A DNA stretch of 63,691 nt, counting the filler, from Stramenopiles sp. TOSAG23-6 (taxonomy: Eukaryota): the NCBI GenBank assembly GCA_900128565.1. It is 12 parts of 12 records of this genome, joined end to end, with 100 filler letters (N's around TTAATTAATTAA, not from the genome) between each part and the next. Parts side by side here need not be neighbours in the genome. Positions count along the whole stretch, not along the records: positions 1 to 7,318 come from LT636578.1; positions 7,419 to 14,725 come from LT636579.1; positions 14,826 to 22,114 come from LT636580.1; positions 22,215 to 29,497 come from LT636581.1; positions 29,598 to 36,877 come from LT636582.1; positions 36,978 to 44,255 come from LT636583.1; positions 44,356 to 51,630 come from LT636584.1; positions 51,731 to 58,991 come from LT636585.1; 4 more parts are not named here. One strand, given 5' to 3'. Within the stretch, counting starts at the first letter, position 1; each line of letters starts with the position of its first letter. This document shows, piece after piece, positions 1,879-59,823 of this stretch. The notes beneath the pieces were generated by a model. That model made no database searches, was not told the DNA's origin, and worked only from the letters and a program-made list of their open reading frames with translations. Position numbers and translations under genes: made by a program.

Positions 1879-4077
1879 ATGATTCGAACGTTCATATCCA
1901 AGACAGTTCCCCGAGCATGGACACAGCACTCCAAGATGGTTAAGAAAATCATTGTTGGAAATGCATTACCATGTATTGGCACAAGTTCATTAAATTGTAC
2001 ACATTTTCAGTGTCGATGTTCGAGCAATGGTAAAGGGAGAAACAACGGAAGGAACGGCGGCCCCAGCGTAACTAATGGAGGGAATAATCTTGGACGTAGA
2101 ACTAAACGCATTATTGATACAAAAAAGAGCCAAGGTGGCGGAGCCGGTGGTGGTGGAGGTCCACCTGGAGATGATATGCTTTGTCCTAACTGTGAAAACC
2201 GACTACAAATCGCTGTAATGCCGACGTTGAAGCAACAAGAAGATGATCCAACTGTCGGACCTGTGTATACTTGTTTGAAGTGTGGTAGTTACTGGCGTTT
2301 AGCTGGACCTCGGACTCCAGTAGGTTCAAGCAATGTTCAGATTGGAACAAACTTTCGAACGAATACTACACAAGAAGATTATGAAAAACAGATGAAAGAT
2401 GAGAAGTATGCGGAATATCAGGTTTTAGAAGGTTCAAAATTGAATCCAAAAGAGCTTTTTGAAGGTCTAGATGAGCACGTCGTAGCTCAAGAAAAGGTGA
2501 AAAAAGTATTAAGTGTAAGTATGCATAATCATTTTAAACGATTGAATAATCACATCGAAAAGGAAAACAAAAAAGCAAGTGAAACTTTCCTAAGCAGAGA
2601 AATTTCGTCAGGTTCACCGTCTGATCTCAATATGGACAATATTGGGATGCCGACAAATAGCCTTAATATTCCATTTCCTCTCGGTCCTAGAGGTTCACAT
2701 ATGGGTTTGTCTACGGTATGGGATACATCAGAACCAAAATCTCATACAAATCCAGCCATGAATTCGAAAAGTGAATCCCCAGAGGAAGGCGCTTCTAAAA
2801 GTGCTTCTGCATTAACACTCGTCGATGAGCCTGAAGATGATTTAAAAAAAGATGCAATGAAAGGAGACTTCAAAAAAGGTTCAACACCTGGAGAAACTCG
2901 CAAAGATAAACTAAATGCTTTAAAGCAGTTAAATGGTCACTCGTATGATGAGGATGATGTCGTATTAGATAAGACAAATGTGATGCTGGTTGGTCCTACA
3001 GGCTCAGGGAAAACATTATTGGCCAAGACTCTGGCTAGTCTTGTTGATGTACCACTTGCTATAGTTGATGCCACATCACTAACTCAATCAGGATACGTTG
3101 GTGAAGATGTAGAGTCAATTTTGTTTCGTTTATATAAGGCATCTGGCTACGATTTAGAAGCAACACAAAGAGGTGTAGTATACATTGATGAAGTTGATAA
3201 GCTCGCTCGAAAAGCAGAGAGTGTAAATATTACTCGAGATGTTAGTGGCGAAGGTGTACAACAAGCTTTATTGAAGATGCTCGAAGGATCTGTGGTTCAT
3301 GTACCTGAAAAGGGAGGTAGAAAAAACCCAAGAGGAGAGTTTATATCGATCGATACTACACATATACTATTTATATGTGGTGGTGCATTTGCTGGACTTG
3401 AAGAAGTAGTTGCCAGACGAGTAGCAAAATCATCAATTGGATTTGGTGCCCGAGTGCGAGGTAAAGAAAAAGCTGAAACTAAATTGATGGAAGTTTCTGA
3501 GCCGGCAGATTTAATGAGGTTTGGAATGATTCCTGAATTTGTTTCGCGTTTTCCTGTCATTGTGAGTACAAGTGAATTGACTGAAGATCAACTTATTGAT
3601 GTACTTACCAAACCAAAGAGTGCGTTAATTAAACAGTATAGGAAATTATATTCCATGAGTAATACTGAATTCCATACTACTGATGCAGCGATGAGAGAGA
3701 TTGCGAAAAGTGCTCGTGTGCGTGTACGTTTTCATTTCAATTTCTAATTTTTTTTTTTTTTTTTCGTATGAAATTTTGTACCTAAATAAAAAAAATTGAA
3801 ATATTTTTTCACGATACATGGTACTGGTGCGAGAGGTCTTCGTGCAATTATGGAACGTATGCTAACTGAATCAATGTATTATTGCCCAGATGATGATGAA
3901 GATATTCGTGGTGTTTTAGTCACAGAAGATGTCGTTAAGGGTTATATTCCACCAATAATGTTACGGGGAGATGAGACTGTTGAAAGTTATTTTGAAAAAG
4001 TATCTGAAGGTTCTCTTGGTCCAAAAAATACACTAGAAAGTGTTGATGTTCCTGACGTTCTTGGAGCTGCTGCATAA
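1879..4077 (+). CDS. CLPX: Mitochondrial ClpX AAA+ chaperone; exons 1879-3723, 3820-4077
   Basis: Presequence-like N-terminus, CxxC/CxxC zinc motif, [22 protein letters not shown] and [14 protein letters not shown]. Splicing restores [16 protein letters not shown]. Confidence 0.95.
3724..3819 (+). other. Non-canonical GT-AT intron (family member)
   Basis: GTACGTTTT...GTACCTAAA...GATACAT. It has an in-frame stop and no AG anywhere inside, and removal restores the TGARGLR sensor-2 region. Confidence 0.9.
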
Positions 4078-4407
4078 CTCTATTTATCTCTCTGATCTAG
4101 TGTGCGATCTGATCTATATCTATTCTAAACTCTTTTGTCTTTTTTTTGTGAGGACTTGTTTGCTTGTAAAATATATAAAAAAAATCAATTATTGAAAACA
4201 TTTTTTTTACATTGACCATTTTTTACATTAACATTTAAAAAAATCAACGATGGAACAAACCTGCTATTTTGTGAGCCGCGTGTGGTAAGAAATTATGGTA
4301 CATCAGTGCTGACTTCTTGTCGGTATCGACAAGTCCTTTGTAGTTGTCGTCGAGAGTCCACTGATAAATACTCCTCCTTCAAACTAATTGTTTATAACTA
4401 CTATTAA

Positions 4408-6500
4408 ATGGCAAAGAAAACTGCTGCAGAAAAAGCTGCTGCAAAGGCTGCACTTCGTGCAAAGCGTGCGGCACGCGAGGCTGCCAAACGTCGCGCTCGT
4501 GGTGAACTGACTGAAGAAGACGAAGATGAAGTCAAAGTAGAAGAAGATAAACAAGAGGACAAGGTCTCTTCTTCGTCTTTGACTGCATTTGACGTATTGA
4601 ACCATGCTAGTATTACTGGTAAACTCACATCTCGCGAAGATTCCCGTGATGTTCAGATTGAAAATTTTAATATCACTTTATATGGTCGAGAGTTAGTTGC
4701 TGACACTACTTTAGCCTTGAATTATGGTCGTCGTATTGGTCTTATTGGTGGTAATGGTTCCGGAAAGTCTACCTTATTAATGGCAATTGCTACTCGCCAA
4801 ATTCCTATTCCTGATCATATTGATATATGGCATCTTCACGAAGAAGCTAAACCTTCAGACCGCACCGCTATGGAATGTACTATAGATACAGTCAAACTTG
4901 AAGCCAGTCGTATCGAAAAACAAATAGATGACGTCATGGCAGAGTATGGCGGCGACGCTGAAGAATTGACTGACCTTTATGAACGATTGGATGATTTAAG
5001 TCCCGAAACATTCGAAATGCGTGCTGGGGAACTTTTATTTGGTCTTGGATTTTCGCAAGAAATGATGAACAAAGCAACAAAAGATATGTCTGGTGGTTGG
5101 CGCATGCGTGTAGCACTAGCTCAGGCGCTGCTCGTTGAACCAAAGCTACTTTTATTGGATGAGCCAACAAACCATCTTGATCTTGGTGCATGTGTTTGGC
5201 TTGAAAATTATTTATCAACGTACAAAAAATGTCTTCTGGTTACATCCCATTCTCAAGATTTTTTGAACACGGTATGCACAAATATCATGTACGTTTTCAT
5301 CTTTAATTTCAATTTTTTTTCCCCCAGACACTTTCATACCTAACAAATTTAGAATTTCTTTATTTTTTTACAATACATGGAACTAACAGTCAGAGGTACT
5401 TTAGAGTATTGGTCTGGTAACTATGATACTTTTATCAAAACAAAAAGTGATAAGGAAATTAATCAACTGAAGAGACACAGAAAAGAACAAGATGACATTA
5501 AACGTCTTAAGCACTTCATTAATACTTGTGGTACGTACTCTAATTTAGTGAAGCAAGCTCAATCCAAACAAAAAATTATTGACAAAATGATTGAAGCAGG
5601 ATTAACTCCAAAACCAGATAAAGTAACCGAATACAATTTTAACTTTCCTCGTTGTGGTGCTTTAGCACCTCCTGTCATGTCTTTTAAAGAAGTCTCGTTT
5701 TCATACTCTGGAAAGAAAGAGGACTACCTGTACACGGATCTTGACTTTGGAGTTGATTTAGATTCTCGAGTTGCATTAGTTGGTCCAAATGGTGCTGGTA
5801 AATCGACGTTATTGAAACTCATGACTGGAGATTTAATTGCTACAGAAGGAGATGTCAGTCGTCATAGTCATTTACGAATTTCATACTATAATCAGCATTC
5901 TGAAGATCAGTTGGACTTAAATTTGAGTCCAATTCAGTTTATGCAAAAAACTTTTGCTGCAGGTGTTGTTTTACCAGGAAGAGAAAAGAAACAACTTACA
6001 CTTGAAGAATGGAGAAGTGTTTTGGGAATGTATGGCATCACAGGTTCACGCCAAAGTGATACCATGAGAACTATGTACGTCTTCATCAACAATTTCACTT
6101 TCATTTTTTTTTCGTTGAAAATTCTATATCTAACAAATTTCAAATTTGATACATTTTCACACAATACATGTCCGATGGTCTTCGCACTCGTGTTGTATTT
6201 TGTCTTTTATCTCTCGGAAATCCTCATATTTTACTCCTTGATGAGCCTACCAATCATTTAGATATGGAGTGCATCGACTCATTGGCAAGGGCTATTAATA
6301 ACTTTGAAGGTGGTCTCATTCTTGTTAGTCACGACTTTCGATTAATTACTCAAGTAGCTTCTGAGATTTGGGTATGTGATAAAGGAATCACAAAATGGAC
6401 CACTGGAATTCGTGCATATAAGAAGAAATTGAAGGCTGATGGTGAAAGTCATATTAAGAAGATGATGAGACGTCTCAAAAGTAGACAAGAAAAAGGATAA
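4408..6500 (+). CDS. ABCF2: ABC-F family ATPase (ABCF2/ARB1-like); exons 4408-5288, 5379-6074, 6170-6500
   Basis: Two nucleotide-binding domains ([27 protein letters not shown] and [23 protein letters not shown]) and no membrane domain. Confidence 0.9.
5289..5378 (+). other. GT-AT intron (family member)
   Basis: AT|GTACGTTTT...ATACCTAAC...AATACAT|G; joins VCTNIM-ELT...GNYD in frame. Confidence 0.85.
6075..6169 (+). other. GT-AT intron (family member)
   Basis: No AG inside. The next downstream AG would delete the ABC signature and most of Walker B; GT-AT removal gives [10 protein letters not shown]. Confidence 0.9.
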
Positions 6501-7418: not shown

Positions 7419-7470
7419 TACGAAATTTTGTACCTAACAAATTTCGAATTTAATTTTTTTTACAATATAT

Positions 7471-8587: not shown

Positions 8588-11500
8588 CTATTCCCCGTCA
8601 TCATACGGATTCACATCACGGGAATGATATCCACGTTGCTCTGCCAAACGCTTCATGTATTGTTGACTATACTCCTCTTCGGACATCCCAGACATTTCCG
8701 CAGCCTGTTGTATTTTTTCTCTGTAACCTGCAATTGTATCATCATCATAGCCTGCAAGTTTAAGGTACTCATATAAATCCTTCGCCTTATCAAGAGCAGA
8801 CATACGCTCTTCATACCGATTTGACTGTCCTCCAGGTGATGCCTTGCCATTCATTGAGTACTCAGAGTATCGCTCTTTATAGCGTTCAAAGTATGCCTTT
8901 TCATACTCTTTTGTTGTCATACCTGCTGCAACCGCCCCATCCTTGAGCTGATTACGGTACGTTTCGATAGTAGCTTCATCATATCCTGCTTGTTGTAAAT
9001 ATTCGTATATATCCTTACTATTCTTTAATGCTTTACCAAGTTTCTCATACGCTGCATTGTGGTCTGCCCTAGACGTCATACCACCACGTCGTTCTTCACC
9101 CTTACCAACACCATCTTTTCCTGTCCCAGCAGCAGGAGGTAAAACTTTGTATACACTCCATCTTCGATTATTCGTTTCACCTTCAGGAGTAGCTTCATCA
9201 CAAAAGTCATCAATACAACCACATCTACGTTTTGTTTCATCAAGACAAGGTCGCTCACATGATCCTCCTTCACGATCTAGTTTTGTTAGCAATTTATTAA
9301 ATGCAAACGAGTGACCATCACTATACGCACGAGCAATAGCAAAATATTTCTTATCGTTAGTAACTGCGTGGTGCTTAGCAAGCTTAAATCGTGCGCCTGT
9401 AGAGCCACCAGCATAGATTTTGTCTTCCGAAAATGAATTTTCAGATGTAAAGCATCCAATATACTTGGATCGATGACTTGTGAATCCACTGTTATTTGCC
9501 TTGGCAGCTGCCTTTTTTGATGCTTTACGGAAATCTCTGCGATTTTTCCTGACAATGCGAGAGGTTTGCACGCGATTCCATTCGTGTCCTTTTTTTACAC
9601 GATATATGCGGACCATCCAATTTTGTGATGTAAATGCTTCTTCAATATGTTCAAGTTGAATATGTTTATCACCAACTTCCATATTTCGCACAAGATCAAA
9701 TCCATTTGGTTTTGAATAATCCGTGATTAGTTCAGAAAAACGGTAATATGAAGTTTTGTATATTAAAGATCGAAGAAATTGTTTTGTCGCAGTATGATCA
9801 ATAGCAAATCTACCTTTGGAGTTGTAATATTTTTCCTCCGTGACATGTATTTTGGAAAAATATTTCAAAAAAAATCTAAAACAATTTGTTAGGTACAAAA
9901 TTTCGTATGAAAAAAAAAATCGATTTTTTTGTAAAAAAAAAAATAAAACATACATCATCATAAACACCTTGTGCGATACGAACCATCCAAAGGAACTTAT
10001 TAATGTCATCGGATTGATAACCTGTTTTACCACCAAATACAACTAGTACATAATCAACATCTAGACTATCAAGAATAGGCCAGGCTTTCTCCTCAGAAGA
10101 AGCAAGAGCTCGGGCAACAGTCGCAATATGAGTATTATTCCAGGTATTATGCATTATGAAAAATATTTCAAAATTTAAAATCGTTAGGTACAAAATTTTT
10201 ATAAAAAAAAAAAAAAAATCGAAATTGAAATGAAAACGTACATTATCTACTAATGTAGTACGATTTGACATTGAGGCCATTTGGTATCCATAATCCCACC
10301 CTGTATTATGAATAAATATGTTTTATGTATGAAATTTGTTAGTTTTTTGTTTTTTGTACAAAACTTGGAGTAAGTATAAAACACAAATTGAGATGAATGA
10401 TGAAAAAAATATTTCAAATTTTTTCAAGAACTTATTAGGTACAAATTTTCGTACGAAAACAAAAAATCTTAAAAAAAATGAAAACGTACATGCAAGAACT
10501 TTGGCATCGGGATGAGTATTATGTCGTAACCAATAGTATGCCTCACGGTAATCATCCATAATGACACGTGTTCCATCTGCACGACGACTTGCTAAAACAA
10601 TAGAAGGACTAGAATATGCTTCTGAAGCAACATAAGTAACATGCATTGAATACATGCAAAGCATCCCTGTCATACCCATGATCACCATAACTGCCAAACT
10701 AAATGGAATTTCTGATTTAGGTGTCTTTACAGAATTTCTCAAATTTTTATCATCTGACAATAAATGAACTTTGTATTTTATATGAGCCATAAATCGTCGT
10801 AGTATAGCACTAACCGAAATTGAAGCTAGGATACATGCAATAGGTGCAAGGGTAAGCATAAGTCTCACCATGACACCCGCGAAATACCACGAAATTGTTC
10901 CATATAAAATAATAAAAATTTTCGAATCTGTAGGGTTTTCAAATAAAAAATACACACCTGCAGGTGAAAAAGGGACTAAAATATGTAAATCAAAAAAGAA
11001 CGAGGTCCAAGTAGTGGGCTGATGTTCACTAACGGATGCAATAATGGGTATATATTTTTTAGCATAGGTAGGATCTAATAAAGACAAGGCCCTGCCGGTA
11101 AACTGAACTTTTCCAGATAACAAAGCGATGCTAATAATCGTCACTGTAAGTGTCATAACACCAAAGAATGCAAGACGCATGAGAAATTTTGCTTGTTTAG
11201 CAGTCACCTTATTTCTAAACCAGATCATAAGAGCAAATGCATTAATCATGATAAATACACCATGTGAAGATGCACATTCTGCTTGCAATAGTACATTAAA
11301 TCCAACAAATGGAACTTGCATCGCCATTAAATTACCCAATATATAATACGTTGTGTATGCAACATACAAGCGTCGTGAATAACGCCCTGCAACAGTTAGG
11401 ATAAGTACATATAATGGTATAATATTGATAATGAAAATATATCCACCCCATGCAGAAACCATATAAAAATATGCCACGGCCGTCACCGCAGCGTAGGCCA

Positions 11501-14825: not shown

Positions 14826-17427
14826 GCACTGTGTCTTTGCACTGATGGATCTATTTTATCTGCAGGTCAGGACAACGTTGTAAAACGTTGGGTTCAAACT
14901 TCATCCTCTAGCTGGGTTGATTCAGGTCAAGTTTCTCCGCACCCGGATTGGGTTACCACAATATTACCAATACCAGCGTCTATAATGGCAAAATGTAATA
15001 ATGGTGGTTTCATTACTGGATCTCTAGATCGTCCATCGATTAAAGCTGGTAAAGGCGCACCTATACGTATTTTCAACCTTGAGGGGGCAGAGGTAGTTGC
15101 ATTGAAAGGGCACACACAAGGTATTGTTTCTCTTGGTTGGACTGTGTCTTTTGATTTAGTCAGTGGTAGTTGGGATGGTACAGCTCGTGTGTGGTCACTA
15201 GCTGCTTTATCTACATTGCAAGATAATATTTCACCAGATATTTCCACAGCGGCTTGTACGCATATATTACGTGGTCATGAAAATGCAGTTGTGGTCTTAC
15301 CACTGGCAGATGGAAATATTGCAACAGGTTCTTCTGGTTCAACAGTAGATCCCGCGACGGGAAAGTCAGATTGTAAATTACGTGTATGGTCTATTGGGGA
15401 GTCAGGTACGAGCCAAGTGATAAAAACATTTACTGAACATTCACTGAATGTCAGAGCTCTAACAAATGCTCCTGCTTTAGGGGGTTGTTTTATGACTGGT
15501 GCCAACGATGGACAAGTTTTTCTTCGTTCAATTGACGGATCACCTCTCCAACAATTTAAATCAACATCATTATCTTCTAATAGTCAAAAGCTTTGTGGTA
15601 TACTTTCAATTGATTGCGTTTCAGCGGAACATGCTACAGTGTCTAATGAATCAACCTCTTTTTTTGTCACTTCCAGTCTTGATGAAAATGTTTGTGTCTG
15701 GCGTGGTGGGAATTGTGTACAACATATTCCACATCCTGGGACACCATGGAAAGTAATAATTTTACCAAATGGTGACTTAGTGACTGCGTGTGGAGATAAG
15801 AGGGTACGTATATGGACACGAAATGCAAGTCATGCCGCATCGAAGGAACTTCAAAATAGTTTTCAGGAGTCTTTAGTTTCTCGCACTACAGAAGGCCCAA
15901 AGCTTAATCCATCAGAATATCCATCTGTTGCTGATATGGAAGCAGGAAAGGTGCCAAATCCAAAAGGAAATGGAGGTGTTCAAATGTTTTCAAAGGATAA
16001 TAAGTTATATGCCTGTATGTTTTCCTATCATTTGAATTTCATTTTTTTTTCATAGTAAATTTCGTACCTAACAAAAAAAAATTTAAATTATTTTTTACAA
16101 TATATATTTATGGGATGGAAAAAGTTGGGTTTTGCAAGGAGAAGTAACTGGTTCTAGTGGTGGGGGAAATTTAGGAAAGAAAAAAACCAATGATGGTAAA
16201 GAATGGGATGAAGTAATAGATCTTGATCTTGATGGCGGACTTGTACTTCAATTAGGATTTAATTGGAATGATGATCCATGGCATGTAGCGAGTACATTTT
16301 GTCAAAAACACGAATTATCTAGTAATTACGAAGAACAAATTGGTAACTATATAGCGGGTCAACAAACACAGCGTGGGATAACACCATCATCCCAAAGTCA
16401 AAGTGATTGTAATCCAATTCAAACGACTTCAAATACAACATCCAAATATTTCCCTTCAAATGCATCACATGTCTACACATCAATAAACATTGATGGTATG
16501 TTGAAAAAAATGATTTCATGCAATAATTCCTTAAAAGAAAGTGACTCAAATTATTTTTTAAATGATGAAAATATTCAAGTATTGGTAGACTTATCAGATT
16601 GCTTAAAGGATAAGTCGCATTATCACTCACGGCTACTGCCTCCGAAAACATCCATTTTATTAATGAAACTTTTAGATTGGCCTTCCAATATTTTGTTTCC
16701 TTGTATTGACCTAATTCGTGTTGTTTTCACACATCCTGATGCTATTGATAGTGATATGAAATCAATGGATGAAAAACGGATTCGTGAACTCGTTTCAAAA
16801 ATAATTCGTCGTGTTGGTGATTCCGATGCCAGTTCCGTAGCACAAAAATTAGCATTAAAAGCATTTACAAATATCATTGCTGGGCGAGGGTCGCGCCAGA
16901 AAATGATGACAATCAGTTCATGTTCAGTAATGAATGATATCACATTATTTGCATGTAATCACGCAGGAACAAATGATACAAAGTTGAGACAAATAACTTC
17001 TTCTTTATTAATGAATATATCTACTGCTTTTTTTGAGATTGATACTGATTCCACCGTATTTCGTCCAAATCTTGATAGATCAACTGATCTTCTACTAGTT
17101 GCGCGTGCTTGCGTCGATGGATGCGCAAAAATTATAGGTAATTCGCTTTGTCATTCTGATAAATTAAGTATAAAGAGAGCTCTCATTGCTACTGGTACGA
17201 TTTTATCTGCAGTTCCTTTTAGGCAACGATACTCTGCTGGAGCTATGGTTTCATTGCCTTCAGCTGTGAAGTCTGTTATGTTAGCAAATATAATTGATCA
17301 GTGGAAAGAAACTGTTGCTAGCCTTCAAGGTACTGGTAAAATGGATGAAGCACAGTACGTAGTAGAGTTAATTGACATTTGTAATACTGTTGTAAATATT
17401 TCTACTTCTTATGAGCGCTTAAAATAA
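14826..17427 (+). CDS. PLAA: PLAA/DOA1/UFD3 (WD40-PFU-PUL), 5'-truncated; GT-AT intron 16015-16105
   Basis: WD40 repeats (VSGSWDGTARVW, GDLVTACGDKRVRIW), PFU (L.LGFN..DDPW..A..F) and PUL (L.WP...FP.IDL.R). Splicing gives LYAYLWDGKSWVLQGEV. Confidence 0.9.
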
Positions 17428-18748: not shown

Positions 18749-20268
18749 ATGCTTGTTAGTTGTTCACGGTGTGGGGAACCTGTAGAAAATTGTGTCCGAA
18801 GTACATGCTTTTGCCCAGAATGTAGTAATGTAGTAAAAAAACGTTGGTGTGGTGGCTGTGGCGTGGAATGCAAAATCAACTCTGGTATAGACGATGGTAA
18901 TCATGTAGTCTTTCTTGGGCGTTTATGGCACACAGAGTGTTTACGTGTATTTCATCCGGATAGACTTGACAATAATGCTTTTGCTAGCACGTCTAGTCAC
19001 AAACATCATACGCCATTTGTGCGCTCAAGTTCATACATACGTGCATTTATGGATCGCACGGCTTCGGAAGATAGAAATCAAACTCAGGCTGTTAAGGACT
19101 CTACAAATAATGAGTACAGCACAAATACAAATAGTGAATACAGCACAAATAGAATAAAAAGTATGTCAACTCCATTAAAACCAACGACTAGAATAAAATC
19201 GCGTCATTATAAGAAAACAGATTTTCAACAACCAAATAAGACTATCCTCAAAAAGACTGGGAGAAGTAAAAGTAGTCGAAGTATTAGTGGAACATCTCGA
19301 CGATTGCAACAATTTCACTCTCCAGCACTACAAGATTTAGTAAGCCGAATAAAAATAGCTTGTGTGAAGCATCAAAACAAAATTAGAGATTGTATAATTG
19401 GTTCAGAATTGGTATCGTATCTTGTTCGGAGCGGACAATCTAAAAATCGTATCCATGCTCTCGCAGTTGGTCAGCATTTGTTTGACCTCGGTGTACGTGT
19501 TCATCATTCATTTCAAATCTATTTATTTTTCGTACGAAATTTCATACCTAACTATTTTTTACGAAAAAAAATATATATGTTTTCATAAAACATGTCTTGC
19601 GAAGAGTCTCAACTAGCAATAGTGTATATAAAAGTAAAATATCTGTGAAACATTCCGTTCGAGAAGTTGGGAAAAGTATCTTAAAATCTCTTAGCCCTTT
19701 GGTAGGGGCTTCAATCAGTAAGAAGAAAAAAGTAAAAAATAAGAGTTCAAATTTAGATAATTATCGTATGGGCTCAGAAAGTTCCGAATCAGAAATATCT
19801 GTAAATGATTCAACCAAACAATTATTAGATAAAAGAGATAAAAGAATGTTTGAAGATTCATCTGGTGCAGTGTACCAATTTTGGCCTTTACGATCTCTTT
19901 CAGATACTAAAACATCAAATACTAGTAGTTACAGTCAACGTGGCCAAACACTAAAAGATTTTGTACGTTTTCATTATGAATTTCAAATTTATTTTTTGTA
20001 GAGAAAATTTCATACCTAACGAATTTTAAATTTGATATATTTTTGGACAATACTTGGGACTCCGATACGAAAAACAAGAACTGTCCCTGTATCCACTACT
20101 GCTTCAAATAATGCAACAGGGTTGATTACATCATGGCCTTGGTCAACAGATAGTATGCTAAGAAATGTCGATACAGAATCGAAAAGTTCAAAACCTGGAA
20201 ATGTGTTGGGTAGTGATACTAAAAACTCGAAAGCTGTAGCTAGTGCGCGTGAAGTGGGTACTTCTTGA
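18749..20268 (+). CDS. Zinc-finger (LIM-like) plus DEP-domain protein; introns 19493-19593 (GT-AT) and 19963-20055 (GT-TT)
   Basis: CxxC clusters and WHTEC; DEP-like CIIGSELVSYLV...A..VGQHLFDLG|VLRRV completed by splicing. Confidence 0.7.
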
Positions 20269-35597: not shown

Positions 35598-36764
35598 TTA
35601 TACTGAATCTCCTCCTTCGCTTGGCCCTCTAATTACTGGAACTTCTCCAAGATCTAAATGATCATTTGATTTCTGAGAATCCCGTGTTAATTTTGAGATT
35701 TGTTTTTGTCCCATAATTGTTGGAGATTCATCAAATGTAATGTAGGAAATATTAAAACATTTTTTTGTTAGATACACTCTTTGTAGTCCATGTAATTATT
35801 AGTATTTTTAAACAAAAAACAACGAGACATTCAAATTTTAGATTCATAGTGCACTTGGAAACATACATTCGTCATCACTTGGTGGAAATTCGCCTTCCAT
35901 ATAATCGTCATTATTAAAATCCATTGCAGAGACAGGATTTCGTTCACCAATACCAGAATATGCAACATATTCGTTCCTGTTGAAAAAGTACTTTACCTTA
36001 TCTGAAACTGTTTGAATTCCATGTATTTTAGAAAATATTTCATTTTTATTTTGGTTAGTACGAAATTTTCATTGTAAAAAAACGAAAAAAGTTTTTTTTT
36101 TGAGAAACGTACATTATATACTTGATCCTTCCCATGATGAAAGACTTTTGCAATAGGATTTGTATGACTTGCATATTTCCCATTTGACTCATCACATTCT
36201 CGTATAAAGGATGGATTTGAAGAAAATTTCGATTTTCTTCCACCAAAACCTCCAAAACTTCCAAAACCAGAAGTAGTATATGGTGAATTTCCTTTTTTAT
36301 GAAAGCATAATCCATATATAATTCCACATAAAAGAAGAATTACAATCCATCCACCATGACTTAGAGAATTATGCCAATTTGGACAATCTTTTATAATACG
36401 CCGTTGATCAAGTCCATCTACACAACTGTTACCAGCTACAAGGCGATATCCTTTGGAAATGGCATATGTCCCAACGCAATTTTTTGGTGGTCCAGTGTAT
36501 TGTGAAAAAATATTTCAAAAATTTCAAATGTTTTAGTTAGGTACAACATTTCGTACGAAAAAAAAATTTAGACAAAAAATTGAAAAAAAATAAAACATAT
36601 TTGGACACTTGTTTCTCTTCTTTTTTTTTCTTATCCATATCTTTTGCACTAGAAAAGAATGATGATTTTGATTCTTCAAGTGTGCATTTCCCACCGTTAA
36701 TATCACGAGTATACCCGGTATCACACTCATAATCTAAATCAACACATTTACAATTGGTAACTTC
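35598..36764 (-). CDS. VPS10/sortilin C-terminal part; introns 36495-36600 (AT-AC), 36021-36112 and 35735-35866 (GT-AT)
   Basis: Spliced translation gives NCKCVDLDYECDTGYTR...GYRLVAGNSCVDG (10CC module), a TM helix and an acidic cytosolic tail. Not visible in the ORF track. Confidence 0.82.
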
Positions 36765-44201: not shown

Positions 44202-44411
44202 GTATGTTTTATTTTTTTTTTTTAACAAAAAAATCGAATTTATTTTTCGTACGAANNNNNNNNNNNNNNNNNNNNNNNNNNNNNNNNNNNNNNNNNNNNT
44301 TAATTAATTAANNNNNNNNNNNNNNNNNNNNNNNNNNNNNNNNNNNNNNNNNNNNATTTTGTACCTAACAAATTTTAGTTTTTTTTTTTGAAATATTTTT
44401 CCAAAATACAC

Positions 44412-45931: not shown

Positions 45932-47648
45932 TCAACGCTTAGTGGTACCGCGATTTGATAATTCCACAAATGCGTTGTTTTTGGTTTTCTCCAATTTTTC
46001 TGCATTTCTAGCAGTATTAAAAGAAAATAATCCAATTTTTGCACTTTCATCACGCTCCAAAGTAGCATATGTCCCTGATGTTTTTTTCTGCTCATCATGT
46101 GTATTCGAATCATTACCAACCACTGATATTCTTGCGTTGTATGGAATATTATCCAATTCTTGTTGTGTGCATGGAAAATCAAGCTCTACATGAGTACCCT
46201 CATTGGATTCAAGAGATAAATAAGTAAACTGCCAAGGAGTTGAACTATTGAGATTTTTGTTTTCTTCATGACGAACAGCATGTACAGTTACTTTGGCTCG
46301 TTTTCCACCTAAACAATCTTTAGCTTCTTTAGGGTTAGGGTTAGGGCCCAGACATTCAAATCTAAAATTAGCAAACGTGTTTTCAATTTTTCCGCCTAAA
46401 AATCGACCACCACTAATTTCTCCTCCTAAAGCATTTTGCGCAGTCTTATTGCGTTGAATAGTTCTAAGTGCCAAATCCCTTATGTCGATGGACTTACGTA
46501 CATGTATTGTCAAAAATATTTCATATATTGAAAATTCGTTAGATATATTACAAAATGTTCCATGAAAAAAAAAATTAAATTCATTATGAAAATATATACA
46601 TCTCAAAAAAAATTCTTAGGTACAAATTTTCGTACGGAAAAAAAAAGGTAAAAAAAATATGATAAAAACGTACTCTATATCGTCGATGACCAAAAATACC
46701 AAGACTAAAAAGACCCAAAGTAATTGAAATTATCAATAAATTATCACTTTGGGGTAAATATTCATAAACTGTACTAAAATAATTCTTTTTCTTTGACGAA
46801 AATTCGTCAAGTCCGGAATTTTGTATACAAATCGACTGCAAAGAGATTTTCAAACCTTTACTAGTTTCAGGTACCAGTTGAACTATTCTAGGGTTAGGGT
46901 TACTAGACTGAAATGTATCTGAGGTTTGCGATAATTGAGTATTTTCCCCAATAGTTTTATCGCTTTTTTTGCTTGAATTTTTTAATGCAATTGGTGTCAC
47001 GTTTAATTTCTGTATCAGACAATGAGTAGGGTGTACAACTAACGTAGCCTTTTTTTTGTACGTACCAAATTCCGTACCTGATGTCAACAATTCACGTTTT
47101 TCAGACATATTGTTTTGAGTTTTTTGAGTTTTTTGAGTTTTTTGAGTTTCTAGACAATTTTCATGGACACTACTATCAATATTTGATTTATCTGTAGCAT
47201 TTATTTCCGAGTCTTTACTACCTTCATTTTTACTTTCATCTAAAAGAAGCGAAAGTAACTCTACTTTAGCTGTACCACGATTTCCTGTTATGAAAAACGT
47301 TGCATCAAGAAACGCATCCTCCAATCCAACTTTACAAATATTTTGTGTCCCTGAAACGCGACTCGATATACACATATCTGAACCAACTAATTCTTTGACT
47401 TCATCAGAAGACGATAACACATGAAATGCGGGGGAAAAGGCTTGATTCTTTTGTAAAGACTTGTCCAACAAGTACTTCGATGTCTGATATGTCAAAAAGC
47501 TCATGGTCGTGACACCTCCGATTAGGCCAAGCAGTCCGTAGTTGACACGTCGTGGTACGCTTGACTCTGTTGTCGAGACGTTTGTAATCTGGCGTATGTA
47601 GTATGGTATATGTATCATAGAACTACGACTTCTATACAATACATGCAT
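45932..47648 (-). CDS. Probable mitochondrial inner-membrane protein with two TM + Tim21/Coa1-like modules; intron 46502-46673
   Basis: Each TM is followed by helix-(L/V)G...F.I.G..G.AKV-like sequence. Domain identity is by eye only. Confidence 0.55.
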
Positions 47649-48008: not shown

Positions 48009-51000
48009 ATGTCTGATCCAGAGGGATATCAAATACCTCCAGCTGTCTCTGTCAGCAATGACGTTAGTCAATCAACTCCTCGTACATCTCTATCTGTCGT
48101 CACAAAAACACATACAAAAAAAGAATCAGGTATACCAAATGATTTATATGAAGGTGGGACGCAAATCGAGTCTGTAATATCTCCTATATCAAATGCTTCA
48201 TCGGAATGCGCTTCTTTACGTCAACAAGTAGTTCAATTATCTAAATGTGCGGAAGAAAACTCTATAGAGAATTTCTTACCTGATGAAACTCCGTTTGCTG
48301 AGTCTCTCCCACCTCGGCCAATAGCGCGCGAAAATCAGCATCGTATAGAATTATTGAAGCGAGCTCGCCGAATGGAACACGATAATGAACGACGCGAGCG
48401 TGAAAAGATAAAAGCAAATAACAAGCTACGTCAAAAAACTTTGGAGAAAATAAACGAAAGTCAAGAAAAAAAATTAGGGTTAGAGTTTCCACAAAGTCTT
48501 CGAGATAAAGAGCAATTTGATGAATTAATGAATTTAAAAACGGATGAAATTTTATCTCGATCAAATAAGCAAACAAAATTTAGATTAGATGAAAATGAAA
48601 TTTTAGTTGGAAAAAATAGTTATATATCTACTACTACGGGTAAAACATCCGAAAAATGTATAAACCCTAACCCTAGTAACCCGAGTGAAGGTCAAATCAC
48701 AAACAATGACACTCAGAACATTCAAAATTCGTTACGTTCGAAAACCATAGGAGGATTAGCAACAGATGTTCATTCAAATGTTCATTCAAATGTTCATTCA
48801 AATGTTCATTCAAAATCAAATAATAGACCTAACCTTGGGAAGGATTACTCCTTAGATAACAATACACAGTATTCAATGCGTGAACGAAAAAACACGAAAT
48901 CTATACAAAACAAAATCGAACATAGCACAACAAAAAGTAACGATAATTGTACTGTCCAGAAAACTTCAAAAACTCCAAAAGTGAATAATGTAGAAATCAT
49001 TCGGGCACAAAAAGCAGCATTGGAGCTAGCTAAGTATAGTATGGCGCAAAATCAATTAAAAATTAGAAAATTGGCGATGGAAAGAAAACAAAAAAGTCGT
49101 ATGTTTTTTTTTCAATTTCGAATTTATTTTTCATACAAAATTTTGTACCTAACCATATTTTTTTTTTTCGAAAATTCTTTACCTAACAATTTTTCTTTTT
49201 TGATTTTTTTCAAAAATATATGTGATCTGGCAATAAGACTTAGGGAACAAACATTACAGCCAAGACTACCAAAAAGAAAACGAAAATCTAAAGAAATTAA
49301 TAAAAATATAAAATCAACATTATCAAAAAGTAGTTCAAAAAATAGAAATTTCGCAGCTTCTTTTCCAAAATCTAAAAATACAAAAACATCAAAATCAAAG
49401 CCAACAGTGTTAAAAATAAAAAATAGTACAAAACATCATGAAATAAATCATCCAAAAAATACAAAACATCAAAACAATCAAAATCATAACCCTAATCCAA
49501 AAAATACAAAACATCAAGACAATCTTATTTTGAAACAATCAAATTCTGCGACTGAAAAAAAAGTGAAAAAGAAATCGACCAAATCGACCAAACCAAAAAA
49601 GAAGATTGCGTATAAAGAATTAAAAAGGAGACGACAAAATGTCAATTCTTTAGGTAAGAAATTTCCTACGAATTTAATTTCGAATGATAAAAATTTGGAT
49701 GATTCTCATACGAGTAAAAAAATAGAGCAAGCCATAAATAGAACATGTACGTTTGCACCATGAATTTCAATTTTTTTTTTTTTTGATACGGAATTTTGTA
49801 CCTAAATGTTTTTTTTTTTTGAGTTTTTGAGTTTTTTATTCAATACGTTTTCACTATAAAATGTCAAATTTTTTTTTTAGAAAATTTTGAACCCCAAACA
49901 CATTTTATTTTTACTAAAAAAGAAAAAGAAAAAAAATATATTTTTTCACAATACATGGTTGGATGGTTTAGAAACTTCTATAATGAACAAAATATTACCT
50001 TTACAAATTCAAAAAGAGAATAACAAAAATAACAAAAATAATACATCTAAAAAAGAAAAAAATACTAATTTTCACACTCGTAAAAATACAATTGAAAAAA
50101 GTTTAGAAATATCATCTGGAAAGCCAAAGAATACAAAATCAGAGTCAGAAAAAATAGAAAAACGTAAAAAATTAGTTGCATATATGGCGCGAAAAAAGAA
50201 AGAAATGAAATTAAAAATTAAAGCAGAAAAACAAAAGTTTGAAAATGAGAAAAAGTCAAAAGAAGAGAGACTTCTTGGAGTACGGGAAAATGCTTTAAAA
50301 GCATATCAAACTATGAAAGTGAAAAAGATGTATGTTTTATTTTTTTTTTCAATTTTGAATTATTTTTTTTCAAAAAAAATTTGTACCTAACAAAATTTTT
50401 TAGTTTTTTTTTTGAAATATTTTTCCAAAATACATGCCACTGCTAAAGAAAAGAGAAACGAATCGCAAATCCCGCAAAGCATTGAGTATTACTAAAAATG
50501 GATCGAAAATGAGATACAATTCGCATTCAAGTAATTTTGGTACAACAAAAAATGTTCAAAAACAAAAAATGTTCAAAAATGAAAAAATAAAAAGTACGAT
50601 AAATTTTCAAATGGACAAGAATTTAAATTCGACCGATGCATCGAATATAGTAAAGCATACTAAAACTTCTAGTACATCAATACATCAAAATCAGTCGTCA
50701 AGTAGTATTCAAATGCTCAAAATCAAAGAAAAAAAGAGTAATAAAAAAAAGAATAATATAGTCAAAAAAAGTTCCACTTGTATTAAAACATCTAAAATAC
50801 CTAAAAAAACTCATAAAAATAAATCTACTTTTGAAAATGGAACCCAACAAATTCGAAATTTATCAGGTGTTGTGAAAAAAACTCAAATATCTCAAGATTC
50901 AAGTTCAAATTTGCAAATGAAAACTAAACTAACTTTGTTAAATACTAAGAATACTAGGAATAATAAAAAAGTAAATTCTACAGTAGAGGAAAGTAGCAGT

Positions 51001-51022
51001 GAAACTCAAGACTCTCAAGAAT
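48009..51022 (+). CDS. Large Lys/Asn/Ser-rich hypothetical protein; GT-AT introns 49099-49221, 49747-49956, 50330-50435
   Basis: Three ORFs joined in frame at family splice positions. Confidence 0.6.
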
Positions 51023-51120
51023 GTATGTTTTTTTTTTTTTTTTAATCGATTTTTTTTTCGTACGAAATTTTGTACCTAACAAATTTAATTTTTTTTTTGA
51101 AATATTTTTCCAAAATACAT

Positions 51121-51547
51121 GATTTGGAAGGAATCAACAAAGCTATTGAAATCGCTAGGTTAGATCCACGACCATCCATTATCAAAGTAAGAACTGTTAT
51201 TGGAAAAGGGGCTGGATCAAAAGAAGGCTCACATAAGGTACATGTAGGTTTTTTTTCATCAATTTTTTTTTTTCAAATTTTTTTTTTCAAATTTTTTTTT
51301 TCAATTTTTTTTTTTCAATTTTTTTTTTTCAAATTTTTTTTTTCAATTTTTTTTTCAAATTTTTTTTTCAATTTTTTTCATACTAAATCTTATACCTAAC
51401 AATAAAGATCAAATCTCTACATTATTTTAATAATACATGGTGCTCCATTAGGTGAAGATATTCTTGCACAAGCAAAAACAAATTTTGGTTTTGATCCAAA
51501 TTTAAAATTTAATATACCTCAAGACGTTCAAAATATTTATACTAAAT
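51121..51547 (+). CDS. TKT: Transketolase internal fragment; GT-AT intron 51244-51438
   Basis: AI..A...RPSII.VRTVIGKG...EGSHKVH|GAPLG; splicing restores the conserved HGAPLG. Confidence 0.88.
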
Positions 51548-51793: not shown

Positions 51794-52908
51794 CTAAGTC
51801 AGACCAATTTTGTAATTGTTCAATAATTAAAGGTGTGATTTGAAGACATCTTTTAATTGCCGTTTTTGGAATAGTCGACGCTGGTAATCCTGTGAATTTT
51901 GAAAGTGCCAAAATTGCATCAGTATTATTTATTGAATGTTGACATGTATTGTGAAATTTTTTTTATTTTTTATTTTTTTGTTAGGTACGAAATTTCGTAC
52001 GAAAAAACAAATTCGAAATTAAAAAAAAACATACATAATGATTCTATTAAAAACCATATAGTTGAATGAAGTGACATTGATCTAATATGCTCTACATCAC
52101 CAGTGTTACTATTTATTTCAACTTCAATGAGTGATGAGAGTCTTTTAGGGTCTTCAGAGGTTGTAGGGTTAGGGGTAACATGTTCAATTTTTGTTTTTCT
52201 TGTTTTTGTACCACTTTTTGTACCATTTTTCGTGTAAACAACACGAATAAACTTTGAAAGTGATGACTGAATTTCCTTTTTATAAGAAAGTATGTCACTT
52301 TGTGACGCAGAAATGAAAATCTCAAGGTTTGGAAGCCACCTGTGACGTAGGACATTTGCCCTTCGCTTCCATATTTGCTCAACGTCTTTTGTGTCCCAGT
52401 TCAATTCACCATATTTAGGACAATACACTTTTGCCTTTAATTGTTCAATGATACGCTTAAATATCTCCGGATTATCTTTTGACTTTGACGCAGCCTTGTA
52501 AAGCTCAGTTTCGAATTTTTCAGCTACATAATAATTGGTAGAAGAGGATTGTTTGCTGGTATTAGTTAATGCTGCATGCAGGAAAAGAGTTGAAAGAGAA
52601 TTGCCAACTTCTGTAGAATTTTCACCAATTCTAGAATTTCCTCTGATTGGATGATACAAAATACTATATAGAATTTGAATCATACCAAAGAAGGCATCTG
52701 GAGAATTCATCGAAATACAATTTGGCAAGTGAGAAAAGTCTCGGGTTTCTTCAAAAACATAAAACTGGTTCCCTTGGCCATCGTTTGAGAGACACTCTAA
52801 AAGTGTTTTAAAAGAGTCATAAAACTCTCGTGAAAGTGAAGCTTGAGATGGAGTATCGTGCAAACCGTCTTCAAATACATTGAACTGCATCACAGTGGAT
52901 GGCTCCAT
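51794..52908 (-). CDS. Hypothetical protein, 3'-truncated; GT-AT intron 51944-52034
   Basis: ATG ORF continued in frame after the intron; next donor AG|GTATGT at 51793. Confidence 0.6.
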
Positions 52909-53125: not shown

Positions 53126-56100
53126 ATGGATGATTATCCAATGGAATCACACGGTAATGAAATAGATTACTACAATGTTTTGAAGCCTGTATTATTAGTT
53201 ATTGGGAATAGGCGTACATTACTTAAAAACATCGTTGGAAATAGCTATGAAATGTTTATCGAAAAAAGTGAAATAGACAGAAAAACTTCTGTTGAAAATC
53301 TACAAATTGTCTCAACAACACAGTTTCTTCATTCTTTATCAAAAATAGGTATCATACTAAATCAGCAACAAAAATCAATAGTAACTCAAGCAATACTACA
53401 ACTACCTGAAAACAACATTGACTTTGCTAAATTTTATGCTGCACTCCTAAAGGAGTCACGGTATCGTCTAAGAGCAGTCTCTAAAAAGGATCGAAAAAGA
53501 TCCCAAGAGCAAATAGATATAGCAACGGAAAATGCCAGTCATTCTACAGATTTAGATACTATATCATCTAATGATACAATATCAATGAATTCAGCTGAAT
53601 TATACCGGAAAGTTTTACAGGAAATATTAACTGCAATGGAGCGACAACACCCTCAATCACGTCGTCAATTGTACAATTCTATCATTGAATGCTCATATTC
53701 AATTTTTATGGGATATGATAGCAACGAAGATTCAAAATTATCTCCAGCAGAATTTCATACTACTTTATCACGCCTTGGGTTGTCTTTAAATCCGGCACAA
53801 ATGAGAGCTATAAACTCTATGATTGATATCGATGGTGATGTAAATTAACCCTAACCCTAAACGTTCACTTCAATTTCAAATTTATTTTGTAAGAAAATTT
53901 CTGACTTTTCAATTTTTTTTTAAATATTTTCCCAAAATATATGGCTATATTCAGTTTCCCGAATTTTACAAAGCATTGAGTGCTGAGGCGACAAAACGTC
54001 TTCGTGATTTTGATATGGGAATTGGTATGAGTGCCGCTTCTCGAAATAGTGATTGTATGTTTTATTTTTTTTCAAATTAGATTTTTTTTTCGTACTAAAT
54101 TTTGTACCTAACGATTTTTTTGTGAAATATTTTTTCACAATACTTCTATTGGTGGTCCAAAAACAAGAAGTTTTTCAACTCGATTACCAGCAAGTGAACA
54201 GGAATCTTCTTTGTTAATTAGTAATTTAATGGAACAAGATCAATCTCTTCAAAAACAGTTAAATGAAATGCGCGACGAGGAATCTACATTTAGAAATAAA
54301 ACAAAACAACTTATTGAAACTGTTTCCCAAATGGAGCAAACTTTAGTAGACTCAAATGATGCTAAAAATAATGCACAAAAAAAATGGACTGAATGTCAAC
54401 AAGAATGTCTGGCTGAAAAGCAAAATGCTCGTGCTGAGTTAGGATTACTTGATTCAAAAGTTCAGGCAGAAATCGATAGTGAAAAAGTACTTCGAGGCAA
54501 AGAGGAAAGTTATCAATCATACTCCAAGTTTTGGAGTCTTGAATCGTTGAATGATGTGTGGGTAAAATATGATATGCACCAAGAAGGATCTATCTCTATT
54601 GCATCATTCTGTAGCTGTATTCAAGATAATTTTCCTGAGTTATTTTCTTTCCCCGCCTTAAATCAATTGTATAAAAAAACTGGTCTCATTCGAACAGCTA
54701 AATCTGGCGAGCCACGAGTTCGTCGTGATGAATTCCCTGATATGCTAAGGGAATTGTACATGCTACATATTATCCAGAATGCTCTTGATGAGGGAAATTT
54801 ATCCGCTCTTTCGTCCATGGATACTTCAAAATTGTCAATAACATATCCTCAGTTTAAAAGACATATGAAAAGTTCAGGAATAAATCTAGATGAGTTAAGC
54901 TTTGAGGCTGAGTTTAATAGTATAGAACCAGAAGTTATTGAGTCAGATATACCACCATTGGCGAATAGATCTGCTCCTTTTGAATCATATTGTAAATATC
55001 GCGCAGTCCTTATGGGGCATACATTATTGGCTTCATTGATGGGTTATAATATTGATGTACTTTTCACTGGAACCCCTATTCAAACGCCAATACCATCTCG
55101 TGCTCCCTCTCGGCGCTCTACGTCACACACTATTGAAGAAAATGAAACAAATATTGATAATATATCAAATGTGGGACGTAAAAGACCAGGATCTAGAGCA
55201 CGACCTGCATTGCGACCTCCAAGTTCACGAGCAAGACCAGGTTCACAACGACTCCAAGTGCTACAGACTACTATAGCTGGTCAGGGTGGTCGTCCTTTGA
55301 CTAAGCGATCTCTTAAACGTGTCCAAGCTAGTAGAACTCGGCGAAACCAATTTCGTGAGGAAATAAAGAGTTGTCTTGAAAGAATTAAACATGCAACAAA
55401 AGAAGAAGAAAATATGGCTGCATATTTGAGACAGTGTCAAGCAGAGCATCATCTGATACGAGAGCAATACGATATATGCCAATCAAATCTAGCAGACGCT
55501 GAAGCTAAAGAGGAAAAGGTGCGTGCTCAAAACATGGTAGTTCGACGTAATATATGTGACAGCAGAGTAATTATTAGATCACAATTAGCTGCGTTGCTGC
55601 ACAAGAAGAAAGATATGTCTGGTGCGCCTGCAGTTGAGGAGGAAGAGGACCTTGGCCCTCCAATGCCACTGTTTGCAGAATTCAAGAAAATGCTTAACCC
55701 CGAAACAAAAGGTACCATACTTGAACAACAAGAAATGACATCCAGAAATAATAAAGATCGAGCCCTACGTTTAGTTGGTAAATGTCCGAACTCTACAGAT
55801 AGTTACTATCATAATTGGTACAGACGACCTATTATTCGATTATTTATGAAAGTTAGTGTGCTAAAGAGTAAAAGAAAGCTCGAAAAAGCATTCAAAACTC
55901 AATTATCGCTGAAGCAATTTCATCGTATTCTCTCCCGAAGAGGTTTGACCGGAAAAGTTATGAGAATTGATAGGAGTGATAATACTTGTAATATTCGTTT
56001 TGATGGTCAAATTGGCTCTGAGGCTAGTGAAACATGGATGCCGATAGAATCCTTGATGCAACGCCAATTACCTGCAACGATGCTAAACGCAGTCGTTGGA

Positions 56101-58937: not shown

Positions 58938-59091
58938 ATGTATTTTGGAAAAATATTTCAAAAAAAAAAACTAAAATTTGTTAGGTACAAANNNNNNNNN
59001 NNNNNNNNNNNNNNNNNNNNNNNNNNNNNNNNNNNTTAATTAATTAANNNNNNNNNNNNNNNNNNNNNNNNNNNNNNNNNNNNNNNNNNNN

Positions 59092-59823
59092 CAAATGATA
59101 ATGACGTCATTGTTTTTGGTGTTTTTGGTGTTTTTGGTGTTTTTAATTGATCATTTACAAATGATAATGATATTCTACCTAACATTTGTTGTGCTATATT
59201 AACAGCTATTTTTGATTCTGGTGAATCATTCAAAATCTTTCTTCCTTTACCTGGCTTTGGTTTACTCAATAAATGTTTCTGCTGCATCCTATATTGTGAT
59301 TTTTTTTTTTTTTTCAAAGTAAAAAAATATCGTTAGGTATAAAATTTTGTACGAAAAAAAAATTATGTAAAAAAAACAATTTTTTTAAAACGTACATGAG
59401 TAATAAAGAACTGGCTATACTTTTTGTTATTTGAAGTTGTTGTGCAAGTTTCGCAACAGTGATAAAAACACTCGGATTTCGTGTTTTCGGATGTGAATGT
59501 AAAATTTCTACAACTGCACGAGAAAACATAAAGTATAAAAAAATATTTCAAAATGTTTTTTTTGATTTTTTTTGTTAGGTACAAAATTTCGTACGAAAAA
59601 AAAAATTAAATTTCACAATAAAAACGTACAATATTGTTGTATGATCACACTTGGGAGTAGCTTTACTATTACTATTACTGTGTAGCTGAATAGTAGTAGG
59701 GTTAGGGTTTCTAACAGACTTTTTCGTTTTTAATGATTTTAATTTCAGTTTTTTTGAAACTTTTTTTTTTGGTGATAAAACAGATCGAGCATTAGGGTTA
59801 GGTAAAATACGTTTTATATTTGG
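59092..59823 (-). CDS. Fragment of a hypothetical gene; introns 59528-59629 (GT-AT) and 59289-59395 (GT-AG)
   Basis: Three ORF pieces join in frame at family positions. Confidence 0.55.

Follow-up and report, generated by a model that had tools for sequence, protein, structure and literature searches.

The AG at the end of introns is among the most constant signals of eukaryotic gene expression. Spliceosome structures explain this terminal AG by the pairing of its G with the first G of the intron. In canonical introns, the allowed pairs of first and last bases are G...G and A...C, and this interplay is known for AT-AC introns. The U2-type introns of budding yeast, an intron-poor lineage, carry GUAUGU, UACUAAC and YAG in this order. 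U12-type introns possess the donor RTATCCTT and a branch site TCCTTAAC situated 10-15 nucleotides (nt) from the intron end. The introns considered here come from Stramenopiles sp. TOSAG23-6 and lie in a window of 63,691 bases, which is the whole stretch of DNA analysed and consists of 12 contigs joined via artificial N44-TTAATTAATTAA-N44 spacers. Most of these introns begin with GT and end with AT.

The nearest described item is found in Physarum, where GT-AT termini are tolerated by the spliceosome; there, the donors are RTATCYTT and the branch lies 10-12 nt from the intron end (10.1101/2020.10.12.336362). Described introners use canonical splice sites (PMC7789003). In the same paper, introner elements of Amoebophrya are reported to show no preferred terminal dinucleotides, together with hairpin-forming inverted repeats of 8-20 nt and direct repeats of 3-5 nt, and the nuclear-encoded cox fragments of this organism have a G+C content of 53.75-58.48%. 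The nonconventional introns of euglenids and diplonemids possess paired ends and are described as lacking conserved termini, a conserved donor and U1 complementarity (PMC6221363, PMC12621601). A literature search, with supplements and subscription papers outside its scope, returned no GT-AT-dominated genome and no use of the phrase 'GT-AT introns'. This agrees with the initial annotation of this DNA, which knew of no such genome.

The family found in the window consists of introns of 87-210 nt with the layout T^GTAYGTTTT, a T-run, TTCGTACGAAATTTTGTACCTAAC and then TTTTT(C)CA(C/A)AATACAT^G, where carets mark intron borders here and below. Thirty copies were curated, and five more were excluded as ambiguous or cut (536, 24038-24136, 59629, 31790 and 63066). 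The curated set comprises 25 GT-AT introns, two GT-TT introns and one each of the GT-AG, GT-GT and AT-AC types. The earlier count of 38 introns (29 GT-AT, 4 GT-AG, 3 GT-TT, 1 GT-GT and 1 AT-AC) was close to this. The family was also claimed to extend across contigs and strands, and this proved real: a profile built from 11 copies gives 58 matches at E<=1, on both strands and on 10 of the 12 contigs. The observation is confirmed as far as the DNA and the gene models are concerned. Probably, the copies are major (U2-type) spliceosomal introns and form an introner-like family that numbers approximately in the thousands and uses an acceptor ending with U, YAU.

Homology fixes six junctions to the codon. 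Five of them are of the GT-AT type (ClpX, two in ABCF, STT3 and transketolase), and one, in STT3, is GT-AG. Three consecutive exons of STT3 correspond to human STT3A up to residue 524, then to residues 525-544, and then from 545 onward. The exons around the transketolase intron 51244-51438 correspond to residues 216-256 and 257-285 of 3l84_A. The exons of ClpX, ABCF, STT3 and transketolase are conserved on both sides, in line with the claim that the host genes are intact. Five junctions had been named as forced by conserved protein motifs. Those of ClpX, the ABC signature, STT3 and transketolase were upheld by homology, and that of the EF-hand gene by motif and frame only, the Pfam EF-hand_7 match stopping at the last residue of the exon (intron 53840-53942). 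At the intron 19493-19593, the DEP profile stops at the exon end, at position 50 of 72.

The flanking longest frames are joined by 29 of the 30 curated introns. The frame helped to pick the end in six of the 30 (16015, 23592, 23819, 39370, 49099 and 59395), and 13 non-seed copies, whose 3' ends were projected from the profile, therefore serve as a cleaner test. All 13 proved to be in frame (P = 6e-7). If the segments were retained, 27 of the 30 would lead into a stop codon. Flanks that are out of frame and come from unrelated proteins are found at the copy 51023-51120, where the upstream side is a lysine/asparagine-rich frame without a Pfam match and the downstream side is a transketolase exon starting at profile position 216. 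Contig 7 was probably joined wrongly through this copy, the affected flanks being 50436-51243. The intron 59291-59395 is ambiguous: the longest upstream frame makes it GT-AT, its end lies 2 nt later at AG in the profile alignment, and with another upstream frame it could equally be GT-AG. Two in-frame readings are also seen at 24038-24136 (+), which can be divided either as AT^GTGTCC...TTTGCAG^TACATGG (GT-AG) or as T^GTCCGT...GCAGTACAT^GG (GT-AT). A regular-expression rule for the acceptor was tried as well. It locked onto a GAAATAT decoy 15 nt upstream, put 14 of 19 introns in frame (P = 4e-4) and was unused for the boundaries.

The donor is nearly uniform in the 30 introns. The last two exon bases are A in 20 and T in 25 copies, respectively, and the intron starts with G29 T30 A30 C17/T11 G28 T30 T28 T28 T25. 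GTAYGT itself is present in 27 of the 30, so that GU stands within a U1/U6-type consensus as in U2-type introns. The branch box (G)TACCTAAC has the core CTAAC with the counts C28 T28 A29 A29 C25 (n=29), and the branch A, as placed by the motif, lies 33-48 nt from the intron end in 29 of 30. Together with a T-run at -16 to -12, this box provides, by motif, the branch site and pyrimidine tract of a U2-type intron. The yeast-like GTAYGT donor and CTAAC branch of the initial annotation were thus borne out. Both the donor GTAYGTTTT and the distance of the branch box from the end differ from those of U12-type introns.

The acceptor is conserved over a longer distance, with A28 at -9, A29 at -7, A27 at -6, T27 at -5 and A28 at -4, followed by C23/T5 at -3, A27 at -2 and T28 at -1 (n=30); the exon then starts with G in 19 of 30. 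Written as RNA, the extended conserved motif is A-N-A-A-U-A-Y-A-U. The 3' AG (YAG) usual for U2-type introns is found in one intron of 30, the last base being T in 28. With a pyrimidine at -3 in 28 introns of 30 and A at -2 in 27, YAU corresponds to YAG with the last base changed.

No secondary structure is shared by the copies. RNAalifold found 0 consensus pairs in 22 copies with flanks, and the single folds were no more stable than shuffles in 8 of 8 cases (z from -1.79 to +2.15). The pairing of AU^GUA with UACAU^ as a functional helix was rejected because the TT-ending and AT-AC copies show no compensatory change. As separate observations, many copies conserve a perfect 10-nt palindrome, TTCGTACGAA, located about 20 nt before the branch box (e.g., 51057-51066), and each element contains GTAC three times (donor, palindrome and branch box).

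AG is absent altogether from 13 of the 30 introns, among them, as had been stated, those of ClpX, the ABC signature and STT3 (10149-10241). If the acceptor were moved to the next downstream AG, the frame would be kept in 8 of 30 introns only, which is the chance level, and ClpX would lose a portion of the GTGARGLR motif. On the basis of frames only, an upstream AG is skipped in two gene models. The AG 1 nt upstream at 23592-23699 is passed over because a TGA stop would follow, and the AG 5 nt upstream at 34005-33900 because a stop would be met after nine codons. A rule selecting the earliest CAU past the branch accounts for only 13 of the 19 introns ending with CAT, and UAU at -15 is skipped in nearly all introns; therefore, spacing or a longer motif must contribute. 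The second ABCF intron carries a decoy ATACAT 15 nt upstream of its end. It had been proposed that the acceptor is chosen by branch-point distance or the AATAC motif rather than by AG. The independence from AG, the spacing of 33-48 nt and the conserved motif partly support this proposal; no exon-exon read or contig was seen.

The sole intron starting with A (ATATGT, 36600) is also the sole curated intron ending with C (36495), a coincidence with a chance of 1 in 30. The first and last bases in the family appear to form the pairs G...U and A...C. The A...C exception points to the same contact between the first and last bases at the second step, with U accepted opposite G.

We infer that the segments are removed in RNA, and that this is done by the spliceosome. 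The donor AU^GUAYGU would be read by U1 and U6 in the yeast fashion, and the box UACCUAAC would pair with U2 and supply the branch A. The second step would then occur 33-48 nt downstream, past the U-run, at the conserved A-N-A-A-U-A-Y-A-U^G. The pyrimidine at -3 and the A at -2 of the acceptor would keep their usual roles. The last base, U, would replace G opposite the first G of the intron, with C used instead when the first base is A. On balance, the evidence tips slightly towards a free-living marine eukaryote whose major spliceosome has an altered second-step rule for almost all of its introns, combining YAU joining, U-G/C-A matching of the ends, and branch spacing with AAUAYAU, the intron set having arisen from one mobile-element burst.

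The copy number and the similarity of the introns bear on their origin. The motif GTACCTAA, with <=1 mismatch, occurs 89 times in the window vs 33.8 +/- 6.1 in shuffles. Among the 24 introns of <=115 nt, compared over the whole length, the median pairwise identity is 0.71 vs 0.61 in shuffles, and the top pair reaches 0.92. In the unamplified seawater metagenome X3, the word depth for contig 7 is 4.6e3-5.3e4 in intron cores vs about 5 in unique exons, i.e., approximately 1e3-1e4 times higher, and the genome should therefore contain something like thousands of copies. Many similar copies are found in unrelated genes, which is the mark of introners. Four introns are composite, with two branch boxes or tandem partial units (10301-10489 and 46502-46673 on the minus strand; 49099-49221 and 49747-49956 on the plus strand), and look as if one copy had landed inside or beside another. 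The whole-length similarity, the copy number and the composite introns point to mobile-element spread of the introner kind, and we infer a spread of the family by transposition. Family copies contain at least eight of the contig ends (7419, 22215, 36877, 44356, 51630, 51731, 58991 and 62619). Therefore, the assembler broke at the repeat, and the repeat limits the assembly. An exact 24-nt pattern of the family gave no matches in JGI metagenome contigs, GTDB genomes or IMG/VR. A family-like copy is also seen at 33194-33259 (+), with the neighbouring long frames on the minus strand; it may be intergenic, antisense or located within a small unrecognised gene.

The introns could be spliceosomal with the cut sites displaced to the left, by 1 nt as TG...CA or by 2 nt as NN-GTAYGT...ATAC^ (mostly AT-AC). 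The repeated AT or TT would then be the target-site duplication of an element ending with ...ATAC, in agreement with the exon flank TT found at both TT-ending introns. A 1-nt shift is possible in 24 of 30 introns and a 2-nt shift in 17 of 30. However, six of the 30 permit no left shift to TG..CA (10489, 34005, 36600, 39168, 46673 and 49099), and 11 do not allow the opposite shift to TA..TG. In view of the copies permitting no shift, GT...AT (strictly, GT...NT) is the sole reading that fits every copy. Moreover, displaced cuts would fall outside the invariant GTAYGT, and the 2-nt shift would turn a conserved Arg of ClpX (aligned with R364 of 6vfs_E) into His. Such displacement is quite unlikely. 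It is also unlikely that the segments are removed from RNA by a non-spliceosomal route, either the structure-guided pathway proposed for euglenid and diplonemid nonconventional introns or an endonuclease with a ligase. The non-AG ends, the similarity of copies over the whole length, the palindrome TTCGTACGAA and the 5-nt complementarity of AU^GUA with UACAU^ are compatible with this route. Nevertheless, the family shows strong donor and branch signals, which are absent from the published nonconventional introns (PMC6221363, PMC12621601). It also lacks conserved or unusually stable structure, and the complementarity of its ends is uncompensated in the TT-ending or AT-AC copies.

Elimination at the DNA level, similar to that of ciliate internal eliminated sequences, would make the contigs the germline form of the genome. 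The elements are indeed short, AT-rich and precisely bounded within genes, and the genes are broken if the segments stay. This is nevertheless very improbable. The independent 2024 seawater metagenome contig X3 record 13 (46045-47131) carries the intron 46502-46673 at a depth of 6.36, equal to that of the flanks, and no element-deleted DNA contig is present among those listed. Ciliate-type elements are TA-bounded and absent from bulk DNA; here, the ends are GT..AT rather than TA..TA, the long frames are open under the standard code, and the branch box would be unexpected in such elements. Very little probability is likewise given to the segments never being removed, with the genes dead, the ribosome hopping over the segments, or the assembly or sequencing at fault. 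One contig of an RNA library retains intron sequence, and at least one contig seems to be misjoined via a copy (51023-51120), as would be expected in this case. On the other side, the ClpX, ABCF, STT3 and transketolase exons are intact and conserved around the segments, most copies would hit a stop if retained, and 28 of 30 independent copies end with T. The terminal T had also been considered as a possible systematic error for G. X3 record 13 lists no difference at the end of the intron 46502-46673, and the terminal T is therefore not an artefact of the single-cell data. In view of the donor and branch boxes, translational hopping was rejected because splicing is a far more economical explanation.

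Several observations weigh against U2-type splicing at YAU and a transposon origin of these introns. The inverted termini are limited to GTA...TAC (3-4 nt), so that a transposon would lack clear terminal inverted repeats. The AT/AT direct repeat at the borders is seen in 17 copies vs about 14 expected by chance from the two consensus sequences, and no copy that is clearly intergenic or antisense was found among the profile matches in the window. The covariation of the first and last bases is seen in a single intron, and Rfam gave no matches within the window. Length-limited searches of the 5.8-billion-protein set yielded no spliced protein of the same species for the transketolase exon, which was compared with longer proteins, or for ABCF exon 2. 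Two RNA-library runs contain 0.18 and 0.13 of the contig 7 words, in short contigs with a depth of 2-7, and no exon-exon joint was found among those listed for contig 7. The contig X5 record 24 (51093-51248) remains colinear with the genomic sequence at an intron-exon border: it begins 28 nt within one intron, covers a 123-nt exon and continues into the following intron. Loose ends in the RNA library present other unspliced exon-intron borders. Intron cores are over-represented vs exons in the RNA libraries almost as in DNA, so that DNA carry-over or pre-mRNA may account for the signal. The absence of exon-exon joints in the listed rows of the RNA libraries speaks neither for nor against splicing. 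The contig X5 record 23 starts 3 nt before the exon start 49957, which fits a branch of a graph between spliced and unspliced forms; with a depth of 4 and a single end, it is given no weight.

If the interpretation as U2-type introns with a YAU acceptor is true, about 5/6 of the introns end with U while retaining the textbook donor, branch, and -3 and -2 bases, which would make them a natural test of the G-G pairing model and a natural genome-scale mutant of 3' splice-site recognition. It would raise the question of which changes in Prp8, Slu7, Prp18, Prp22, U2, U5 or U6 accompany a U-ending acceptor, and would mean that a non-standard acceptor does not prevent the spread of a mobile intron family. 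Gene finders restricted to GT-AG would predict the majority of genes in such organisms incorrectly, and the gene counts, intron statistics and protein catalogues derived from single-cell or metagenome assemblies would then be wrong. Should transcript data agree, the family would be a new variant of the spliceosomal intron.

The genes of the window are ordinary eukaryotic housekeeping genes, including those of mitochondrial-type ClpX, an ABCF2-like ATPase, STT3, ESF1, a PLAA/Doa1-like WD40-PFU-PUL protein, Mak16, a tubulin-tyrosine-ligase-like (TTL) protein, a clathrin-adaptor small chain and transketolase. The standard code keeps the long reading frames open. The G+C content is 33.9% in the window overall vs 19% in the introns. 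The DNA of the window is near-identical to seawater metagenomes of 2024 and to a small DNA run of 2015, which may be its source; the near-identity to the metagenomes indicates that the organism is marine. For ABCF exon 2, the best match in the protein set (proteins of 127-405 amino acids only) is 65% identical, and the named ABCF relatives, with 55-57% identity, are two dinoflagellates and one cercozoan. The curated introns and one partial copy are listed in the table.

Table. Introns and copies of the family in the window (positions along the whole stretch; carets mark intron borders)
Feature	Position	Strand	Length and ends	Junction and remarks
ClpX intron	3724..3819	+	96 nt, GT-AT, no AG	6vfs_E residues 364^365; in frame
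ABCF intron 1	5289..5378	+	90 nt, GT-AT, phase 2	join NIM^ELT = NIMELT of homologue P0002
ABCF intron 2 (ABC signature)	6075..6169	+	95 nt, GT-AT, no AG	gapless vs 6 homologues
STT3 intron	9845..9953	-	109 nt, GT-AT	in frame; homology places junction to 1-2 codons
STT3 intron DN^NTWNN	10149..10241	-	93 nt, GT-AT, no AG	human STT3A residues 544^545
STT3 composite intron	10301..10489	-	189 nt, GT-AG, ...ATAATACAG^	STT3A 524^525, split codon T^GG = W
PLAA/Doa1-like intron	16015..16105	+	91 nt, GT-AT, ...CAATATAT^	in frame, frame-aided end
DEP-domain gene intron	19493..19593	+	101 nt, GT-AT	in frame
Intron	19963..20055	+	93 nt, GT-TT, exon flank TT	in frame
TTL gene intron	22521..22627	+	107 nt, GT-AT	in frame
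TTL gene intron	22793..22904	+	112 nt, GT-AT	in frame
Intron	23592..23699	+	108 nt, GT-GT, ...AAATAGT^	in frame, frame-aided end
Intron	23819..23912	+	94 nt, GT-AT, ...CAATAAAT^	in frame, frame-aided end
Intron	24272..24371	+	100 nt, GT-AT	in frame
Intron	33900..34005	-	106 nt, GTACAT...CATAGTACAT^	in frame; no 1-nt shift possible
Diverged intron	35735..35866	-	132 nt, GT-AT	in frame
Intron, branch box TACTAAC	36021..36112	-	92 nt, GT-AT	in frame
AT-AC intron	36495..36600	-	AA^ATATGTTTTATT...CACAATACAC^TGG	in frame; no shift possible
Intron	39168..39254	+	87 nt, GT-AT	exon -1 = A, rules out TG..CA reading
Intron	39370..39471	+	102 nt, GT-AT, ...CAATATAT^	in frame, frame-aided end
Composite intron	46502..46673	-	172 nt, GT-AT	also in independent metagenome contig
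Intron, two branch boxes	49099..49221	+	123 nt, GT-AT	in frame, frame-aided end
Composite intron	49747..49956	+	210 nt, GT-AT	in frame
Intron	50330..50435	+	106 nt, GT-AT	in frame
Family copy	51023..51120	+	98 nt, GT-AT by consensus	flanks out of frame
Transketolase intron	51244..51438	+	195 nt, GTAGGT...ATACAT	3l84_A residues 256^257; Pfam match stops at exon end
Intron	51944..52034	-	91 nt, GT-AT, no AG	in frame
EF-hand gene intron	53840..53942	+	103 nt, GTAAAT...AATATAT, CCCTAA x2 inside	in frame
Intron	54055..54145	+	91 nt, GT-TT, exon flank TT	in frame
Intron	59291..59395	-	105 nt, GT-AT in longest upstream frame	ambiguous, frame-aided end
3' part of copy	44356..44411	+	...AAAATACAC^, ends ATACAC^	5' end lost at contig start

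Some features of individual introns and their surroundings were observed in addition. The transketolase intron contains, at 51249-51375 (+), about ten tandem T-rich units of 11-13 nt (TTTTTTTTTTCAA-like) located between the donor and the branch box. The exon after the intron 46673-46502 opens with a perfect donor-like string GTACGTAAGT (46490-46501, minus strand) directly past the acceptor; it was treated as exon because the frame stays open for 189 codons. The telomere-type hexamer CCCTAA is found in runs of 2-3 units at 53849-53860 (+), 46329-46346 (-), 34838-34849 (-) and 33755-33766 (-), one of the runs lying within an intron and one within a coding frame. The run at 46329 is shorter by one unit (6 nt) in an RNA-library contig and in an independent metagenome contig.

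Compared with known systems, the family resembles the U2-type introns of budding yeast in the near-invariant GTAYGT, the CTAAC box, the pyrimidine at -3, the A at -2 and the position of the acceptor tens of nucleotides past the branch. Unlike them, it ends with U (28 of 30), possesses the longer motif ANAAUAYAU, has U rather than G as the last exon base and forms a repeat family. The ending of the sole A-starting intron with C is shared with the AT-AC introns of both the U2 and U12 types; unlike the known AT-AC introns, it stands alone within a family in which G...U, not G...G, is the normal pair. Physarum (10.1101/2020.10.12.336362) differs from the present case, in which about 83% of the introns are GT-AT, the donor is U2-like and the branch is 33-48 nt from the end.

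The presence of hundreds to thousands of short, similar introns across unrelated genes in a marine protist, a similar length class and assembly breaks at the copies are features shared with the transposon-derived introners of Micromonas, Aureococcus, dinoflagellates and other organisms (10.1101/2022.06.06.494994, PMC12130899). In contrast to those introners, clear inverted repeats or target duplication are not seen here, and no copy is shown outside genes. The resemblance to Amoebophrya (PMC7789003) consists in a marine protist with mostly non-canonical introns, some of them in repeat families; the present family differs in having one dominant pair of dinucleotides, no hairpin and a far lower G+C content. 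Many non-GT-AG introns and a marine protist known from single cells are also common to the euglenid/diplonemid case (PMC6221363, PMC12621601). Unlike the euglenid and diplonemid introns, whose class features it does not share, this family has a strong donor and branch box, conserved termini and no structure. The lack of conserved structure along with the strong donor and branch boxes therefore makes it distinct from both the euglenid/diplonemid introns and the Amoebophrya elements.

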